Of a DNA stretch of 36,303 nt, positions 1 to 6,164 are shown one piece after another. Numbering within the stretch: the first letter of the stretch is position 1; the number at the start of each line of letters is the position of its first letter. Made by a program: the position numbers and the translations under genes. The DNA comes from an uncultured Clostridia bacterium (GTDB taxonomy: Bacteria; Acidobacteriota; Aminicenantia; JBFLYD01; JBBIMS01): positions 1 to 36,303 of the forward strand of contig CAZFCI010000307.1 of the NCBI GenBank assembly GCA_964517525.1, given 5' to 3'. A model generated the notes under the pieces. It saw only the letters and a list, made by a program, of their open reading frames with translations. It was not told the DNA's origin and did not search any database.

Positions 1-3
1 CGC

Positions 4-66
4 GTTAGATCATATAAAATGTCCACGAAATGTATCTGGTTAGATCAAAATTAAATGTCCATGAAA
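4..66 (+). repeat. Left IS end: two tandem copies of GTTAGATCA-N7/8-TGTCC-N2-GAAA
   Basis: Copies at 4-30 and 39-66, read directly from the sequence. Confidence 0.85.
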
Positions 67-79
67 ATGATAAAATATT

Positions 80-99
80 CCTGACTTTACTAAGTCAGG
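80..99 (+). promoter_or_regulatory. Hairpin abutting the transposase RBS
   Basis: CCTGACTT (80-87) and AAGTCAGG (92-99) form a perfect 8-bp stem with a 4-nt loop, immediately followed by GAGGAGAT-ATG(108). Confidence 0.5.
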
Positions 100-107
100 G
101 AGGAGAT

Positions 108-1349
108 ATGGTAAAGGAGTTTGACATGGAACTTATTAAAAGGCAATTAAAAGAGTATTTAAAAGGGAGTAAAAAGAAAAAGTCTCAAATTATCTCTCAG
201 TATTGTGAGCTAACAAAGGTCAAAAGAGCTACTGCTTGCAAGAGATTCAGGCGTTTCGCAGAGAGATATCTATTTTCTGAGAGCTACTCTTGGAAGAATC
301 TATCCATCAAAAAGGGGCGTAAAAGAAAGTATGGAGCTATTCATAAAGAGATAATAAAGAGATGCTGGGAGCTTTCTGGTTGTGTTTGTGCTGAGAAACT
401 CCATCCAATGCTTTCTGTATACATAGAACACCTGAGAAGGAATGGGAAACTTCTTTTCTATGATCCTTCTTTACTGCAAGAGGTAGAGAAGATATCTGTT
501 GGAAGTTTAAAGAGGGTTCTGAGGGATTTTCCAAAAGTATCGAGCAAAAGATATAAGGGGAATGCTTTTATTTATCAGAAAGTGCCTATTGTTGCAGATT
601 TTGGCAGATATGCTTTTGAGAGACCTGGTTATGTTGAGGTTGATTTTGTAGAACATAATGGAGGCTCATCAGCTGGAGTTTACGCAGTAACTGCAGTTTA
701 TACTGATCTTTACTCTCAATGGACGGTAAGAGCGTGTGGGCTTGGGAAGAATCTAAGGAGTGTAGCTGAGATTGACAGAATTGCTCATAGAAGGATTCCG
801 TTTCGAGTTATCCACTATCATCCTGACAATGATAAAGCTATTTTGAAGGTTTTATTTGAGAGGGTAAGAGGTAAGGATTCGATACACCTTTCAAGATCGA
901 GGCCTTACAAAAAGAATGACAATGCTCATGTAGAGCAGAAGGGAGGTGATAAGGTAAGGAAACTTATTGGGTATTGGAGATTTGGAAGTGATGAAGAGGT
1001 TAGAATTCTTAATGAGATTTATTGGAGAGCTGACCTTCTTGACAATTTTTTTATAGCCTGCTTTAAATTAAAGGAGAAGTTGAAGGATAGCAGAGGGAAG
1101 ACAGTTAAGAAAGTATATGAAAAGGCAAAGACTCCTTATCAGAGGCTGATAGAGAGTGAGTATTTAGATGAGAAAGAGAAGGAAAGATTGAAGAGGATTT
1201 ATGAGAGTCTGGACATGGTAAAATTAAGAGAAGAGATAGAGGTTTTAACCGATGAGCTAATTAATTTAGGAACAAGAGGTGATAAAATGAGGGTTAATTT
1301 CAAGGACAAAAAATATGATCTAACCAAAGACATATTTCAGAGACAATGA
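108..1349 (+). CDS. DDE-type transposase (integrase catalytic core)
   Basis: Candidate DDE motifs EVDFVEH, HPDND and SRPYKKNDNAHVEQK; C-terminal KTPYQR. Start moved from 30 to ATG 108 because GGAGGAG precedes it and 30-66 lies in the terminal repeats. Confidence 0.88.
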   Translation: MVKEFDMELIKRQLKEYLKGSKKKKSQIISQYCELTKVKRATACKRFRRFAERYLFSESYSWKNLSIKKGRKRKYGAIHKEIIKRCWELSGCVCAEKLHPMLSVYIEHLRRNGKLLFYDPSLLQEVEKISVGSLKRVLRDFPKVSSKRYKGNAFIYQKVPIVADFGRYAFERPGYVEVDFVEHNGGSSAGVYAVTAVYTDLYSQWTVRACGLGKNLRSVAEIDRIAHRRIPFRVIHYHPDNDKAILKVLFERVRGKDSIHLSRSRPYKKNDNAHVEQKGGDKVRKLIGYWRFGSDEEVRILNEIYWRADLLDNFFIACFKLKEKLKDSRGKTVKKVYEKAKTPYQRLIESEYLDEKEKERLKRIYESLDMVKLREEIEVLTDELINLGTRGDKMRVNFKDKKYDLTKDIFQRQ

Positions 1350-1365
1350 ATTATGATCTAACACG
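1298..1365 (-). repeat. Right IS end: two inverted copies of the same motif
   Basis: TTTC-AA-GGACA-N7-TGATCTAAC (1298-1324) and TTTC-AG-AGACA-N8-TGATCTAAC-ACG (1335-1365). Confidence 0.85.
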
Positions 1366-1519
1366 ACCAGAATCCCCAAACAGTACCACCGTACCTCTCC
1401 CAGCATTCCTCCAATGCTTCCTCACAAGTCTTTGCATATCCCAAATCCACAAAAAGAGCTCCAAAAGTCATTACAACAAAAATGAAGATAAAAAGAAAAG
1501 AAATTAGTCTTTTTAACAT
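1358..1519 (-). pseudogene. Small secreted CX6C peptide, truncated by the IS at 1365/1366 (not in the ORF track)
   Basis: Hand translation: MLKRLISFLFIFIFVVMTFGALFVDLGYAKTCEEALEECWERYGGTVWGFW|SC*. GAGGAGG RBS upstream, signal peptide, and CEEALEEC resembles CESAYARC of the neighbouring gene. The last codons and stop come from the IS end. Confidence 0.75.
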
Positions 1520-1531
1520 CTTATCCTCCTC

Positions 1532-1765
1532 TTATCCCATAAATTCAAGGCACCATGCATAACCCACTATACAAAATCCTTCCCAGGCAAATGCTAATGC
1601 AGGATTGATGAAACCAGATAAGATAGCATCAAGGATACAGCGAGCATAGGCTGATTCACAACTTGCACTAAATGAAGGGGTAAAGCTAAAAAGCATTAAA
1701 ATTACAACAACCAATGAAAAAGCTACTCCTTTACCCAACCATTTCCTTTTTAAAAGAACCTTCAT
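1532..1765 (-). CDS. Small secreted twin-CX6C peptide, function unknown
   Basis: 77 aa: basic N-terminus, hydrophobic stretch, SFSA cleavage-like site, then CESAYARC-x21-CIVGYAWC. GGGAG RBS upstream. Confidence 0.75.
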   Translation of the reverse strand: MKVLLKRKWLGKGVAFSLVVVILMLFSFTPSFSASCESAYARCILDAILSGFINPALAFAWEGFCIVGYAWCLEFMG

Positions 1766-1777
1766 TTTTTAATCTCC

Positions 1778-1783
1778 CATAAT
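1778..1783 (+). promoter_or_regulatory. -10 half (CATAAT) of the IS110 circle-junction promoter
   Basis: Lies 17 nt from TTGACA (3368-3373) only after the right end is joined to the left end through ATCTCC. Confidence 0.8.
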
Positions 1784-1784
1784 A

Positions 1785-3374
1785 TTAATTATATGCATAG
1801 CAATTTAATTTACTTTTATTTACAATGGAATTTGAAAATCTCAGGGTGTTTGGCAAACCTTCATTTTGAGTGTGCCTTGAGCACGATAAGGAGGATGGTT
1901 CCCCACACTCTGACGGTGAGATTTGATTGCATGATGTGCTTCGAGCACTCAATCCGGGAGGATAATTCCCGTCAGAGCATGGGGGGAGCAGAACACCCTG
2001 CAACTGAAAGGAGGTCCTATGTTTAAAAACCTTTATGTCGGTGTCGATGTCTGTGAGGCTGAGTTTTCCGCTTGCTTCATGGATGGCAATGAAAGAAATC
2101 TCGCCTCCAGAAAATACCCTAATACCTTCGACGGATTCAGGCTCTTCAGACAGGACTGCCTCGCCTTCTCCCGTCTTGTGGGTAGAAATGCCAATATCAT
2201 AATCGGTATGGAATCTACAGGAAATTACCATGTCCCACTCCAATCTTTCCTCTTCAGTAGAGCAGGCAGAAGATTCAAAATTAGAGTGATTAACCCCTAC
2301 TGTGTTAAGAGTTTCAGAAAAGCCAGCTTTACCCTCTCCAAAACCGATAAAATCGATGCTGAGACAATCGCTCGATACCTCAAAGCTTTCCCCTCTCAGT
2401 CCTCTACCCCTATCCCTCCTCATCAGCTCTCTTTGCGCTCTACTACAAGATTTAGAAGAGTTCTCATACAGGAGAGAACAAGATGTATAAATCGCCTCAG
2501 GAAAAATCTCAGAGTGGTTCTCCCTGGATATAAAAGAGTGATCGGAGATAAAATCAATACCCCCTTCCTCCAGTTCCTCTCCCTTCATCCTGATTTCGAG
2601 GGTATACCCCCTTCCAGCCCCTACAGACCCCTCCTCAGCATCCTCCAGCAAGATATGCTCTCCATCCTCAAAGATGAGATCAAATGGACTGCAGAGAGAA
2701 TCCTCCAGCTCAATGGGCAGATTGAGGAGCTTGAAAGAAAGATTGATGAGATAATGGATACCTTCTACCCCGACCATATCCTCTTTTCCATCCCAGGTAT
2801 GGGAAAAATTACTGTTGCTACAATAATTGGAGAGATTGGAGATTCTGTCGAGAAATTTCCCACTCAGAAGGATTTCATTGGATATATCGGTCTCTATCCT
2901 GTTGTCTTTCAATCGGGGAAGAATTCTGTCTATTTTAAGATGACATGGAAAGGGAACAAATGGCTCAAAATGGCTTTTATCCTCGCAACTGTCTCTGCAA
3001 GGAAGAATAACCCAGCATTCAGAAATTTCTACAACAGACTCAGGGACAGGGGGAAGAGTAAAAAAGCAGCTGGAGGAGCTCTTGCAAGAAAGATAGCATG
3101 CGTTGTTTACGCAATCCTTCGTAGCGGTATACCATGGAATGAGGAATATGCTCTCTCTGGAATGAGAAGAGGAGAACAGATGAGCCAGAGGATAGATGAG
3201 ATGGCGGGTTCTCCCAATGGGGTAAACCCCGTAAGAGCTCAAAGGCTCAGTGATAATGTGGGACCAACCCGCCAGAGAAGAATATAATGCATATTTTTCC
3301 TTTTTGCAAGAGGTAGAAATGATTCTCCAACCTCCCATCAGTTCCAACTTTTCAGCCAATCTTCTACTTGACAT
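1785..3374 (-). CDS. 529-codon antisense ORF spanning the IS110 element; no recognisable protein family
   Basis: In the ORF track. In codon register with the transposase but also open through both non-coding ends. The host AAGGAG (3387-3392) lies 12 nt before its ATG. Translation is unproven. Confidence 0.4.
   Translation of the reverse strand: MSSRRLAEKLELMGGWRIISTSCKKEKYALYSSLAGWSHIITEPLSSYGVYPIGRTRHLIYPLAHLFSSSHSRESIFLIPWYTATKDCVNNACYLSCKSSSSCFFTLPPVPESVVEISECWVILPCRDSCEDKSHFEPFVPFPCHLKIDRILPRLKDNRIETDISNEILLSGKFLDRISNLSNYCSNSNFSHTWDGKEDMVGVEGIHYLINLSFKLLNLPIELEDSLCSPFDLIFEDGEHILLEDAEEGSVGAGRGYTLEIRMKGEELEEGGIDFISDHSFISRENHSEIFPEAIYTSCSLLYENSSKSCSRAQRELMRRDRGRGLRGESFEVSSDCLSIDFIGFGEGKAGFSETLNTVGVNHSNFESSACSTEEERLEWDMVISCRFHTDYDIGISTHKTGEGEAVLSEEPESVEGIRVFSGGEISFIAIHEASGKLSLTDIDTDIKVFKHRTSFQLQGVLLPPCSDGNYPPGLSARSTSCNQISPSECGEPSSLSCSRHTQNEGLPNTLRFSNSIVNKSKLNCYAYN
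1842..2000 (+). ncRNA. Predicted bridge RNA (target-binding loop about 1856-1900, donor-binding loop about 1901-1984)
   Basis: Closing stem CAGGGTGTT (1842-1850)/AACACCCTG (1992-2000). Stem CTCTGACGG (1908-1916)/CCGTCAGAG (1969-1977). Twin GTGC..GCAC hairpins at 1872-1884 and 1936-1948. Four loop segments match the target and donor junction sequences. The transcript may start near 1790. Confidence 0.85.
2019..3287 (+). CDS. IS110-family transposase/recombinase (DEDD RuvC-like plus Tnp20 domain)
   Basis: YVGVDV, GMESTG and KTDKIDA (DEDD tetrad); SIPGMG, FQSGK (catalytic Ser motif), KGNKWLK, ALARK. AAGGAGG RBS. Confidence 0.96.
   Translation: MFKNLYVGVDVCEAEFSACFMDGNERNLASRKYPNTFDGFRLFRQDCLAFSRLVGRNANIIIGMESTGNYHVPLQSFLFSRAGRRFKIRVINPYCVKSFRKASFTLSKTDKIDAETIARYLKAFPSQSSTPIPPHQLSLRSTTRFRRVLIQERTRCINRLRKNLRVVLPGYKRVIGDKINTPFLQFLSLHPDFEGIPPSSPYRPLLSILQQDMLSILKDEIKWTAERILQLNGQIEELERKIDEIMDTFYPDHILFSIPGMGKITVATIIGEIGDSVEKFPTQKDFIGYIGLYPVVFQSGKNSVYFKMTWKGNKWLKMAFILATVSARKNNPAFRNFYNRLRDRGKSKKAAGGALARKIACVVYAILRSGIPWNEEYALSGMRRGEQMSQRIDEMAGSPNGVNPVRAQRLSDNVGPTRQRRI
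3202..3274 (+). other. GC-rich multibranch stem-loop inside the 3' end of the IS110 transposase gene
   Basis: TGGCGGGTT (3202-3210)/AACCCGCCA (3266-3274) and TCCCA (3212-3216)/TGGGA (3259-3263), enclosing hairpins TGGGG-TAAA-CCCCG (3218-3231) and GAGCT-CAAA-GGCTC (3235-3248). Confidence 0.6.
3368..3373 (+). promoter_or_regulatory. -35 half (TTGACA) of the IS110 circle-junction promoter
   Basis: Perfect consensus, 17 nt inside the right boundary of the element. Confidence 0.8.
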
Positions 3375-3386
3375 TTATTATTGCAT

Positions 3387-3408
3387 CTCCTTAAATATGA
3401 TTTTACCA
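3387..3408 (-). promoter_or_regulatory. Displaced host extended -10 (TGGTAAAAT) and SD (TAAGGAG) of the peptide operon
   Basis: The minus strand reads TGGTAAAATCATATTTAAGGAG. The -35 region is poor, and read-through from the ATPase gene is also possible. Confidence 0.55.
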
Positions 3409-3433
3409 CTTAGAAAATATTAAGGAAAGAATT

Positions 3434-6076
3434 TCAAAAAGTTTGATTTCCCCTTTTTCTTTTCAAAAGTTTTTCCAATTCAACAGCAAAGAAGAGGAGG
3501 GAGGAAAAGAAGAGCATTATTAAGAGTTCAGGGATTGAGAGAGGAGTTGTCTTTAGAAATTTGTTAAACAATGGTATATAAATTGTTCCAATTTGTAAAA
3601 TAAATGTCCCTATAATTGTCCAGAAAAGAAGAGGATTGGAAAAGAACCCAACTTTAAATGTTGAATGGATAAAAGATTTACAAGCAAAAGCATGCCATAA
3701 CTGGGCTAAACATAAGACATTGAAGGTTATTGTCTGCCAGTGAAGGTTTAATTTTATAGCTATTCCCTGGGCTGTCAGAGTTAGCAAGCCGAGAAAAATG
3801 CCTGACCAGAGAATGCTTATACCAAGCCCTCTTGAAAAAATATTCTCCTTTGGATTTCTTGGTGGTCTTTCCATTATTCCGATCTCCCCCCTTTCAGAAG
3901 AAAAAGCAATCCCTGGCAGACCATCGGTTACAAGATTTATCCATAATATCTGAATTGGTTGCAGGGGTAGAGGTAAGCCAAAAAATGGTGCAAGGAATAT
4001 TGTCATTATCTCTCCAACATTGCTGGCAAGAACATATCTAATGAACTTAAGGATGTTATCATATATCTTTCTTCCTTCTTGTATTGCCTTTACAATTGTT
4101 GCAAAATTATCGTCGAGAAGAATCATATCAGATGCTTCCTTTGCAACATCTGTACCTGTAATTCCCATTGCAACTCCAATATCAGCTTTTTTTAAGGAGG
4201 GAGCATCATTTACACCGTCCCCAGTCATGGCAACATACTCCCCCTTATCCTGAAGAGCTTTAACAATCTTAAACTTTTGCTCAGGAGCAACCCTTGCATA
4301 GACTTTAATCTCTTTCACCCTTTCTTCAAGTTCTGCTAAACTCAGGGCATCAAGCTTTGCTCCTGTAATTATTGAATAATCATTTTCTAAAATACCTAAC
4401 TTTTTTGCAATAACCTTTGCTGTCAATGGGTGATCCCCTGTAATCATCACGGGTTTTATACCTGCTGATTTGCAGAGTTTAACTGCTGAGTATGCTTCTT
4501 CTCTTGGAGGATCCATCATTCCTATGAAACCAATAAATATCAAATCACTTTCAACATTTTCTGGCTCAAGATTCTCTGGAATAAAGTCCCACTCCCTAAT
4601 TGCAAAGCCAAGAACTCTTAAGCCATCTCCAGCCATCTTCTCATTGGTTATTGTTAATAAGTTCCTGTCAATCCTTCCTATCCCTTCTTCAGACAAAGAG
4701 CTTGATGATTTTGAAACGATAACCTCTGGCGCTCCCTTTGTAATTGAGAGAATTTTCCCACCCCTCCATTCATGAAAGGTTGTCATGCATTTCCTTTCTG
4801 AATCAAAGGGTATTTCTGCAATTCTTTTCATTTCCCTTTCTATTCTCTCCTTTTTAATTCCTGAATCTATCCCTAACTGAAGGAGGGCTATCTCAGTAGG
4901 GTCTCCAATAAATTTACCATTCTGATAAGATGCGTCGTTGGACAATGTTGCTATCTTCAAAAAGAAAAGTAATTTATTTAGATTGTCTTCGTTTTCATCA
5001 ATAATTATTTCATCTTTTTTATAAATTTTCCCATTCCAGAATATCTCCTCTACATTCATTTTATTGAGGGTCAGGGTTCCTGTTTTGTCCGTGCAAATGT
5101 AAGTTATAGAGCCTAAGGTTTCAACTGCAGGAAGCCTTCTTATTAAAGCATTTTCCTCAACCATTCTTCTTGCTCCGAAAGCCAGGGATATTGTTATAAC
5201 TGCTGGAAGAGCTTCTGGGATTGCAGCAACTGCAAGGCTAACTGCGGTTATAAAAAGGAGTATTGGTTCTCCTCCCCTTAGCAATCCAATAAAGAAAACT
5301 AAAGCACAAATAAAAAGAAATGCAAAAGAGAGTTTTTTACCAAGGTCAGTAAGCCTTTTCTGAAGGGGTGTCTTCTCCTCCTTAGCTTCCTGGAGCATTT
5401 CTGCAATTCTACCAAGTTCTGTTTTCATTCCTGTTTCAACAACAATTCCTTTACTTCTTCCCATTGTGACGGCAGTCCCTTTAAAAATCATATTTTTCCT
5501 GTCACCAAGAGGAAGATGTTTTTCCTTCAAGACTTTTGTTATCTTTTCAACAGGAACAGATTCTCCTGTTAATGATGCCTCATTCACCTTTAACTGATGT
5601 GCCTCTATCAAACGAATATCTGCGGGAACAATATTACCCGCTTCAACCAATACAATATCCCCTGGAACAATTTCCTCAATACGGATCTTCTTAATTTCAT
5701 TGTCCCTTAAAACAGTACCCTCAGGCTCAGCCATCTCCTTTAGTTTTTCCATTGCTTTTTCAGCCTTGTATTCCTGGACAAATCCGATCAGGGCATTTAA
5801 GAAGACTATAAGGAGAATTGCAATGGAATCCATTTCCTCTCCCAAAAAGGCTGAAATTATTGCTGCAGCAATAAGAATAATGATCATAAAATCGGAAAAT
5901 TGGCTTAGAAAAAGCAAAAAAGGACTTTTTTTCTTTTTCTCCTCTATCCTGTTCAAACCGTATATTGAAATTCTCCTTTTTGCCTCCTCAGAAGATATTC
6001 CAAAAGGGGAGGACTCAAGTATTTCAAAAACCTCTTCTATTTCTTTTCTATACCAGTCTGTTCTAATCTCTTCCAT
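3434..6076 (-). CDS. P-type cation-transporting ATPase, P2A (Ca2+, PMR1/SERCA-like)
   Basis: TGES, IPEALP, DKTGTLT, KGAPE, DPPR, MITGD, TGDGVND and WINLVTDG motifs. Start set to ATG 6076, which has GAGG upstream. Confidence 0.95.
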   Translation of the reverse strand: MEEIRTDWYRKEIEEVFEILESSPFGISSEEAKRRISIYGLNRIEEKKKKSPFLLFLSQFSDFMIIILIAAAIISAFLGEEMDSIAILLIVFLNALIGFVQEYKAEKAMEKLKEMAEPEGTVLRDNEIKKIRIEEIVPGDIVLVEAGNIVPADIRLIEAHQLKVNEASLTGESVPVEKITKVLKEKHLPLGDRKNMIFKGTAVTMGRSKGIVVETGMKTELGRIAEMLQEAKEEKTPLQKRLTDLGKKLSFAFLFICALVFFIGLLRGGEPILLFITAVSLAVAAIPEALPAVITISLAFGARRMVEENALIRRLPAVETLGSITYICTDKTGTLTLNKMNVEEIFWNGKIYKKDEIIIDENEDNLNKLLFFLKIATLSNDASYQNGKFIGDPTEIALLQLGIDSGIKKERIEREMKRIAEIPFDSERKCMTTFHEWRGGKILSITKGAPEVIVSKSSSSLSEEGIGRIDRNLLTITNEKMAGDGLRVLGFAIREWDFIPENLEPENVESDLIFIGFIGMMDPPREEAYSAVKLCKSAGIKPVMITGDHPLTAKVIAKKLGILENDYSIITGAKLDALSLAELEERVKEIKVYARVAPEQKFKIVKALQDKGEYVAMTGDGVNDAPSLKKADIGVAMGITGTDVAKEASDMILLDDNFATIVKAIQEGRKIYDNILKFIRYVLASNVGEIMTIFLAPFFGLPLPLQPIQILWINLVTDGLPGIAFSSERGEIGIMERPPRNPKENIFSRGLGISILWSGIFLGLLTLTAQGIAIKLNLHWQTITFNVLCLAQLWHAFACKSFIHSTFKVGFFSNPLLFWTIIGTFILQIGTIYIPLFNKFLKTTPLSIPELLIMLFFSSLLFFAVELEKLLKRKRGNQTF

Positions 6077-6164
6077 ACAAAACCTCAAACAGAAATTTTA
6101 TAATATTTTTTTAAAATTTAAAATTAAAACATCATCATCAGACAATCTTAAAATCAATTTTTCC

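Follow-up and report, generated by a model that had tools for sequence, protein, structure and literature searches.

How does an insertion sequence come to separate the ribosome-binding site of a bacterial gene from its start codon, and is that position specified by an RNA that the element itself encodes? The question is posed by an IS110-family element in contig CAZFCI010000307.1 of an uncultured bacterium (GTDB class Aminicenantia), whose genome assembly (G000) consists of 312 contigs with 36.3% GC; this entire 36,303-nt contig (C307) is referred to below as the window. An initial annotation, made from the letters of the window alone, had proposed that the bridge RNA of this element targets a Shine-Dalgarno (SD) sequence together with a start codon. 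Our analysis sustains the SD half of that proposal, through covariation of the right target guide with flanking DNA and through empty sites, and not the start-codon half, for which no fixed register between guide and flank emerged. The reading that we favor, with a probability of roughly 85%, is that the window element is an IS900-like member of the IS110 family, equipped with a DEDD recombinase and a bridge RNA encoded in its left end, that lands in the antisense of an SD.

The comparison draws on three genomes of the same genus (G001, G002, and G003), on fetched loci (L-numbers) and individual contigs (C-numbers), and on four metagenome runs (X1, X2, X3, and X8), whose assembled contigs supplied extra junctions, some of them only 30-nt loose ends. 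The element and its borders are as follows.

1776–3386, plus strand: body of the IS110-family element, 1613 bp with one CT core, delimited by three left and three right junctions in its own genome and by empty sites
2019–3287, plus strand: IS110-family DEDD recombinase, 422 aa (PF01548, E 2e-30; PF02371, E 2e-21)
1758–1773, plus strand: left target flank (LT), CCTTCATTTTTTAAT, in which CAT, at 8 nt from the core, is the start codon of the gene on the minus strand
1774–1775, plus strand: left copy of the CT core, which with 1776–1778 reads CTCCC; on the minus strand this gives GGGAG, a regenerated SD that precedes the host ATG by 8 nt
3380–3386, plus strand: right end (left donor), ATTGCAT, matched by the left donor guide
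3387–3393, plus strand: right copy of the CT core and right target CCTTA, jointly the antisense of the host SD TAAGGAG

Both recombinase domains score far above their Pfam cut-offs (PF01548, 106 bits against 29; PF02371, 76.7 bits against 21.3), giving a DEDD RuvC-like N-terminal and an IS110-type Tnp C-terminal domain; these domains, the fold of the RNA, and the matches between donor guides and element ends bear out the original assignment to the IS110 family with a two-loop bridge RNA. The same genome contains two additional left ends, where C212 ends and where C195 begins, and two additional right ends, on C181 and on C120. In each of the three left junctions the flank is followed by CTCCCATAAT, and in each of the three right junctions TTATTGCAT is followed by CTCCTTA. 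Occupied sites of this form are ambiguous as to whether CCTTA belongs to the element or to its target. Same-genus empty sites decide the matter: GGCATCTTTTAAC-CT-CCTTAAATAAG in G001 (flank 88% identical) and AGCATTTTTCAAC-CT-CCTTAAATAAA in G003 both show AAC-CT-CCTTAAATA with a single CT. Thus, CCTTA is target, the core is CT, and the element comprises positions 1776–3386 plus one CT; the crossover could fall anywhere within CTCC. There is no target duplication beyond this short core, CT(CC) being present once in the empty sites and at both ends in the occupied ones; no repeat search was aimed at inverted repeats. Orthologues of the P-type-ATPase-like locus beside the element occur without it in G001, G002, and G003.

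The relatives of the window element have recombinases 62–97% identical to its own. Among the species-representative genomes scanned, nothing came closer than 30% identity, and in 40 same-class genomes short matches did not exceed 36% identity and longer ones did not exceed 32%. With no more than about 30% identity to anything in the scanned species-representative genomes, the lineage is a distant one.

The left end of the element encodes a structured RNA, in which the left and right target guides (LTG, RTG) and the left and right donor guides (LDG, RDG) can be placed.

1842–2000, plus strand: structured bridge RNA, with an outer stem (1842–1851/1991–2000) around two internal-loop modules
1860–1870, plus strand: 5′ arm of the target loop, UUCAUUUUGAG, the "left target guide" of the initial annotation, conserved with small changes in relatives and paired with the RTG arm in the consensus fold
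1871–1885, plus strand: target-loop stem-loop UGUGC-CUUGA-GCACG, from the fold, with 5/5 pairs invariant
1887–1894, plus strand: RTG, UAAGGAG(G), identical to an SD and predicted to pair with top-strand CT-CCTTA at 3387–3393
1908–1977, plus strand: donor-binding loop (DBL), with basal stem 1908–1916/1969–1977, LDG AUUGCAU at 1926–1932, stem-loop 1936–1948, and RDG GGGAG at 1956–1960

Over the 175 nt from 1836 to 2010 the minimum free energy (MFE) is −67.6 kcal/mol (z −3.9), a stability equaled by none of 200 shuffled sequences. The two modules share one layout (5′ arm, GUGC/GCAC hairpin, 3′ arm ending in GGAGGAU), and the parallel arrangement guide-GA-(G)UGUGC...GCAC...GGAGGAU that had been described is indeed present in both loops. 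A consensus structure with four relatives has 96% of its cells paired, versus 49–57% when the partners are slid, and shows compensatory change in 3 of 46 pairs; the basal stem of the donor-binding loop has two compensatory pairs. No Rfam family was matched, the single listed hit being snoR1 at E 0.82, far under the gathering score. Within the donor-binding loop, LDG AUUGCAU repeats the last 7 nt of the element (1926–1932 = 3380–3386), and RDG GGGAG is complementary to CT plus its first 3 nt (1956–1960 against CTCCC at 1774–1778), both as previously reported; through these guides, which are unchanged in the relatives L126–L128 and L130, the loop would recognize the joined ends of its own element. 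Matches of the RTG and of the DBL go beyond chance, recurring as they do in all other copies and relatives. We infer from these sequence relationships that the RNA is expressed and base-pairs as drawn.

It is the right target guide that carries the argument. UAAGGAG(G) is the same sequence as the SD and hence would base-pair, as the 3′ arm of the target loop, with the strand antisense to the host SD, CT-CCTTA; the earlier statement that TAAGGAG (1887–1893) is the reverse complement of CTCCTTA (3387–3393) is exact. Guides and flanks vary together. Elements with a UAAGGAG-type guide have the right flank CTCCTTA in five of five cases (the window, C181, C120, and one junction each in X1 and X2). 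L126 and L128 carry guide AAAAGGAG beside flank CTCCTTTT, L127 carries guide AAGAGGAG beside flank CTCCTCTT, and the X8 guide, with T changed to A at 1887, faces the flank CTCCTTT; L130 has guide ACGAGGAG, and its right flank lies beyond the contig. Throughout the guide variants (UAAGGAG, AAAGGAG, AGAGGAG, CGAGGAG, and AUGGGAG), which represent at least four lineages, GGAG is kept while the neighboring bases vary. The covariation between guide and target that had been suggested as a check is present for the RTG, with three guide variants beside matching flanks and one possible exception in X3; for the 5′ arm, no register of guide against flank survives correction. That RTG UAAGGAG specifies an antisense SD is supported, at the level of sequence, by the empty sites, the covariation in relatives, and the location of all ten stored left flanks at start codons.

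These ten left flanks, available as stored sequence, are those of the window, C212, C195, L126, L127, and L128, together with four own-genome sites (C149, C255, C202, and C65) that are unoccupied here and occupied in X1–X3. Every one of them has an antisense start codon (CAT) 5–8 nt from the core, and the antisense frame stays open for at least 48 codons in nine, the contig of L127 ending after 4 codons. The orientation of the element is fixed, the recombinase gene being antisense to the host gene, as had been claimed. When loose ends are included, a start codon lies nearby in 11 of 13 directly read left flanks; CAT is 7 nt from the core in the X3 left flank, and the X8 left flank was inferred via alignment. 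Judged by their translations alone, the target genes appear to include ribBA, yicC, and dnaK, along with one gene that is glutamine-synthetase-like and one that is transaldolase-like. Two candidate patterns were rejected: a bimodal spacing of 5 or 8 nt among the first six sites, which disappeared once sites with spacings of 6 and 7 nt were added, and a common left flank CATTTTTTAAT in X2, which proved to be the dnaK-like site of the window's own genome, CATTTTAAAAC, aligned with 3 mismatches. The 3′ end of the 16S rRNA, considered because rDNA is a possible target, was not found in the assembly.

How much of this location requires explanation depends on where the target sequence occurs. With an SD-type site defined as CTCCTTA 3–11 nt from the start codon of an antisense open reading frame (ORF) of at least 50 codons, 131 of the 681 CTCCTTA sites in the genome (19%) are of SD type, and so are 61 of the 97 sites (63%) outside a crude coding mask. 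A 7-nt SD-like guide and the loss of in-gene insertions therefore suffice to explain the location at start codons, and the proximity to start codons is most simply a consequence of SD targeting, to which the 5′ arm may contribute.

What the element carries opposite its recombinase gene gives the landing site further meaning.

1785–3374, minus strand: whole-length antisense ORF, 529 aa ("hed"-like), element positions 15–1601

Read along the minus strand, the order is host SD TAAGGAG, 12 nt, the ATG of the 529-codon ORF, its TAA stop, 6 nt, the regenerated GGGAG (1778–1774), 8 nt, and the host ATG (1765). The antisense ORF is open in four of four cases (529 codons in the window and in L126, 525 in L127, and 515 in L128); the other two antisense frames hold 22–58 stops. 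It is codon-aligned with the recombinase gene, which in all four contains no TTA, CTA, or TCA codon. For the window recombinase this means none among 35 Leu and 30 Ser codons, where the host share is 27% of Leu and 30% of Ser codons. Total avoidance of these codons keeps the antisense ORF open. Among 160 fetched IS110 loci (L046–L205), 147 have a plus-strand ORF of at least 300 aa, and 11 of these 147 have zero TTA, CTA, and TCA codons; below 50% GC, only this lineage does. A Pfam search with the antisense ORF protein matched no family.

The mechanism that these features suggest is the following. The exchange would take place at the CT (or CTCC) that the SD contains, shortly before the start codon, and the recombinase gene would invariably run antisense to the host gene. 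The host SD would end up 12 nt upstream of the ATG of the whole-length antisense ORF, and the left end CTCCC would give the displaced host gene a replacement SD, GGGAG, in place of the one that had been split; this regeneration, anticipated by the initial annotation, is what the left junction displays. Given the succession of host SD, antisense ORF, and regenerated SD, the host gene would not be silenced but would continue as the second cistron in an operon, and we infer both translation of the antisense ORF and continued expression of the host gene. Insertion into operons may in this way come at low cost, as the regenerated SD and the antisense ORF together suggest.

Such behavior has a precedent in IS900 and IS901 of Mycobacterium avium, beside which the window element is set here by description, as far as the accessible portions of the published accounts extend. 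Both are reported to insert between SD and start codon in one orientation, and share with the window element the lack of target duplication in accounts that also give them no inverted repeats (PMC2942039, PMC8141618). IS900 belongs to the IS110 family, its target motif CATGNNNNNNTCTCCTT holds the same CT-CCTT and antisense ATG, and its "hed" ORF, on the strand complementary to the transposase gene, spans the entire element and depends on host translation signals (PMC8141618). By its architecture, the antisense ORF of the window element is the counterpart of "hed". The two differ in that "hed" is described as having neither ribosome-binding site (RBS) nor start codon, whereas the ORF reported here has its own ATG, and in their hosts, a 36%-GC hot-spring organism here and a 69%-GC one for IS900 (PMC4607514). 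Since IS900 shares both its target type and its antisense-ORF architecture with the window element, the behavior is already known in kind.

The RNA itself is best compared with that of IS621, again from the available parts of the descriptions. IS621 likewise has a 5′ noncoding RNA with target- and donor-binding loops and a CT core; its 3′ arms (RTG and RDG) pair with top-strand DNA, core included, discontiguously in the case of the RDG; and a 7-nt "extended RTG" type described for some of its orthologues matches the RTG of the window element (PMC11208160, PMC11208158). A further likeness lies in a candidate junction promoter.

3368–3373, plus strand: TTGACA, −35-like hexamer in the right end, read from the sequence
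1778–1783, plus strand: CATAAT, −10-like hexamer, 17 nt after TTGACA in the circular junction of right end and left end (RE-LE)

When the ends are joined via one CT, the hexamers read TTGACA-17 nt-CATAAT, which by its form is the kind of sigma-70-like promoter described as rebuilt at the RE-LE junction of IS621 (PMC11208158); a promoter and terminator scan of the locus did no better than shuffles. The LTG of IS621, as described, spans 9 nt, the core CU among them, and is the dominant determinant of specificity, whereas the corresponding arm of the window element shows GA/GU in the place of the core and could not be matched demonstrably to left flanks. Here, specificity lies on the 7–8 nt RTG, both 3′ arms share GGAGGAU, and, unlike IS621, there is no Rfam match.

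IS621 targets a REP-type repeat. The target of the window element is an SD and not a REP-type repeat, for which targeting has also been reported, in the accessible part of the source, for ISPpu9.

SD targeting is not confined to this element, since three other lineages, here called ISa, ISc, and ISd, present comparable right guides. Guide UUAUGGGAG of ISa in L130 matches flank CTCCCATAA at 9/9 positions, guide UCUAAGGAG of ISd in L023 (from G013, a same-class genome) matches flank CTCCTTATG at 7/9, and guide CAAAGGAG of ISc in L008 (C239 of the window's own genome) matches flank CTCCTTCA at 6/8. ISc has at least two copies in that genome (C239 and C28, ~2870) and, in L008, a 461-codon antisense ORF. 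ISc and ISd begin at their left ends with CT-CCTAGG/CCTACG and have the RTGs AAAGGAG and UAAGGAG; in the left flanks of both, CAT lies 6–7 nt from the core. The 5′ arms of ISa, ISc, and ISd (CCAUUUUUC-CU, CCAUGUUUC-CU, and CCAUUUCAC-CU) end in the core CU with CAU at −8 to −6. ISa (L130, 1–1460) lies directly to the left of a copy of the window element, and its RTG is complementary at 9/9 positions to CT plus the left end of that copy; ISa therefore appears to have inserted in a junction made by that element. A natural SD-type site with the same 10-mer as the ISa target exists in the window's own genome (C170).

Searches for further loops by pattern were of limited yield. CAU-N5-core followed by a hairpin and GGAG gave 9 matches in the loci and 8 in shuffled loci, with four of the nine being real loops (the window, L008, L023, and L130). 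A broader loop pattern applied to the genome returned mostly chance matches, recovered the ISa, ISc, and ISd loops (L130, L008, and L023), and added the ISc copy on C28. An idea of wider reach, speculative and on balance unlikely, is that the window element, ISa, ISc, ISd, and, by its target motif, IS900 form an IS110 clade whose bridge RNAs mimic the recognition code of the ribosome, one arm copying the SD and the other, as an anti-SD and anti-start-codon arm, reading ATG at a flexible distance. Members would install themselves as translationally coupled upstream cistrons and would also be programmable against the SD-like junction of another member.

Several observations weigh against the reading of the window element as an IS900-like element directed by its bridge RNA to antisense SDs. 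The consensus structure includes only 4–5 related sequences, and its observed score is reached by 31 of 500 shuffles. Among the sequencing runs listed as carrying the element, none is of RNA. The LE-side contig of X3 has the A variant at 1887 and its RE-side contig reads CTCCTTA; the two may or may not come from one copy. Two of the 13 left flanks have no start codon nearby, namely, an X1 loose end, GGTATATTTGAC, and L130, whose left flank is the right end of another insertion sequence. Enrichment at SDs beyond what a 7-nt guide and purifying selection produce is not significant, as 61 of the 97 noncoding CTCCTTA sites are already of SD type. Furthermore, at the positions that in IS621 guides pair with the core, the LDG carries GA, which sets its geometry apart from that of IS621. 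The case for the SD as the selected target comes instead from the conservation of GGAG across guide variants and lineages, from the regenerated SD, and from the antisense ORF.

What the 5′ arm of the target loop does is a separate matter, on which two rival explanations were weighed. The first, which we regard as possible but less likely than not, holds that the arm is mainly an intramolecular partner of the SD-like RTG, CCUUCAUUUU pairing with AUAAGGAGG to close the target loop in the free RNA, and that its likeness to a start codon is incidental; such pairing could hide the SD mimic from ribosomes or gate target binding. The consensus fold indeed pairs columns 26–35 with 54–62, in 9 pairs with 94% of cells paired and one compensatory change (U-A to C-G in L127), the single-sequence MFE structure has the same pairing, and in ISa, ISc, and ISd the arm has a motif, ACUCC, that complements GGAGU in the RTG. 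However, the variable RTG positions are not consistently compensated (U-U in the window sequence, C-A for L126, U-C for L130); RNAalifold is prone to closing loops wherever pairing is possible; and the loop arms of IS621 are complementary at the core only, to judge from the LTG/RTG layout in the accessible part of its description.

The second explanation, the full proposal of the initial annotation, takes the 5′ arm UUCAUUUU as a left target guide that pairs with the start-codon region, so that SD and ATG are both read, possibly with a variable DNA bulge between ATG and core. Start-codon reading by the bridge RNA in this manner is conceivable but doubtful. Its point of departure, the equality of TTCATTTT (1860–1867) with 1761–1768, is correct and even understated, since the identity extends over 10 nt, CCTTCATTTT (1858–1867 = 1758–1767). 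The arm was compared with flanks at the 10 occupied sites and at 89 unoccupied SD-type background sites, in 16 registers scored strictly and with wobble, which amounts to 32 tests. Aligned on CAT, the occupied sites fit the arm better than the background (mean 3.6 vs 2.27 of 5, p = 0.0005; p = 0.003 without the window; p = 0.024 for six own-genome sites). However, the guide positions outside CAT are all U, so this score measures T-richness, and the occupied flanks are simply T-richer (0.54 vs 0.43, p = 0.017). Nor is there a fixed register, with CAT separated from the core by 5, 6, 7, or 8 nt across sites, as in the background. In the register that had been assumed, parallel to the verified LDG and setting UCAUUUU (1861–1867) against the 7 nt left of the core, the occupied sites score below the background (p = 0.81). 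The best register places A1869 opposite −1 with UCAUUUUGA facing −9 to −1, the same register that IS621 geometry predicts; its p values of 0.02 (strict) and 0.007 (wobble) do not survive correction for 32 tests, and neither does any other register.

Individual sites divide in the same way. L127 has CATCTT facing its own CAUCUU, and L128 matches at 9/9 positions, but CATTTT of L126 faces CAUCUU. The IS621-like register, in which the arm abuts the stem, puts CAU at −8 to −6, and L126 and L127, both with 5-nt spacing, match it at 7/9; the arms of ISa, ISc, and ISd similarly have CCAU at −8 to −6 and end in the core CU, but ISc at C28 and ISd match their own arms at only 3/9 and 2/9 positions. L130 and the X1 junction mentioned above have no start codon to be read. 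Given the variable spacing, the p value of the assumed register, and the complementarity of the arm to the RTG arm, the claim that TTCATTTT reads the start codon gained no support in the form proposed. An alternative left guide, GGCAAAC-CU (1852–1860), which contains the only CU in the arm, was rejected for want of enrichment over the background (p = 0.43).

Least tenable is the view that no SD "programming" exists and that a 7-nt target merely resembles an SD, with survivors found at SDs after coding-sequence insertions were lost: the shares of SD-type sites given above make the location of all surviving insertions at SDs, at ~0.63^6 by chance, not significant in itself, but the view is rendered improbable by a GGAG that is invariant in the guide variants of at least four lineages while neighboring bases change, by a left end that regenerates an SD, by an antisense ORF that is placed to use the host SD and kept open by selection, and by the same target type in IS900, as its description in part attests, in a 69%-GC host (PMC8141618; GC figure, PMC4607514).

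On the favored reading, in which an SD-identical RTG directs the element to antisense SDs, the window element explains at the level of RNA what was observed decades ago, the landing of IS900-type elements between RBS and start codon: the right target guide is itself the SD sequence. The known framework of IS110 biology is unchanged by it. No link between the right guide of a bridge RNA and a ribosome-binding-site target was found in the papers searched, none of which mentions bridge RNA and IS900 together, and the seekRNA paper, in its accessible part, mentions neither RBS nor IS900; supplements to the bridge-RNA papers (Durrant et al., Supplementary Data 2, target motifs per guide) may list SD-like targets. 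The element also represents a natural bridge RNA with its specificity on a long right guide and little on the left arm, which bears on reprogramming and on "half-match" off-target insertion. Half-match recombination by IS621, in which insertion proceeds with only half of the bridge-RNA target specification matched, is described, in the available part of the source, as an off-target route (bioRxiv 10.64898/2026.08.31.748434). By analogy, the term would describe window-element sites at which the RTG is matched and the 5′ arm is not, and here it would be the normal mode.

Two observations on individual copies stand apart. Short contigs, one each in X1 and X2, join 2149/2152 to 2936 and omit ~785 nt of the recombinase gene, and may represent an internally deleted copy. 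A 66%-identical relative (L129, ~1380–1420), whose bridge RNA lies off the contig, has the right junction ATTGCAT-CT-CCCATAG, with an 8-nt likeness to the family's own left end and not a CCTT-type antisense SD.

The window itself joins the element to flanks of mixed origin.

1532–1765, minus strand: host gene, a 77-aa Cys-rich small protein from the ORF list, downstream of the element on the minus strand, with its ATG at 1765–1763
3434–6088, minus strand: 884-aa ORF from the ORF list, upstream of the insertion site

The 884-aa ORF is, from its translation alone, a putative P-type ATPase. Comparison of window positions 1–3520 with L010, L011, and L003 showed that the right flank is joined in G001 and G003 to a ribBA-like gene, the same gene that sits at the C195 left junction. 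The right flank thus natively follows the ribBA-like gene and not the 77-aa peptide gene, so that C307 joins the flanks of two different insertions, either by recombination between copies of the element or by an assembly join through the repeat. The empty site reconstructed earlier by removing the element, TAAGGAG-ATTAA-AAAATGAAGGTT, is accordingly a chimera, right in form but not ancestral. The peptide genes of the left flank were not found in G001–G003, and there is thus no empty site for that flank.

These small Cys-rich ORFs, at 1358–1519 (53 aa) and 1532–1765 on the minus strand, have hydrophobic N-termini and match no Pfam family. The 439-aa ORF at 30–1349 on the plus strand likewise matches no Pfam family. 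A stretch at its 3′ end, 1306–1367, recurs in G001 at the ends of contigs C222, C164, C361, and C335, near a fifth end (C35), and internally in C257, and this recurrence at contig ends suggests the terminus of another mobile element.

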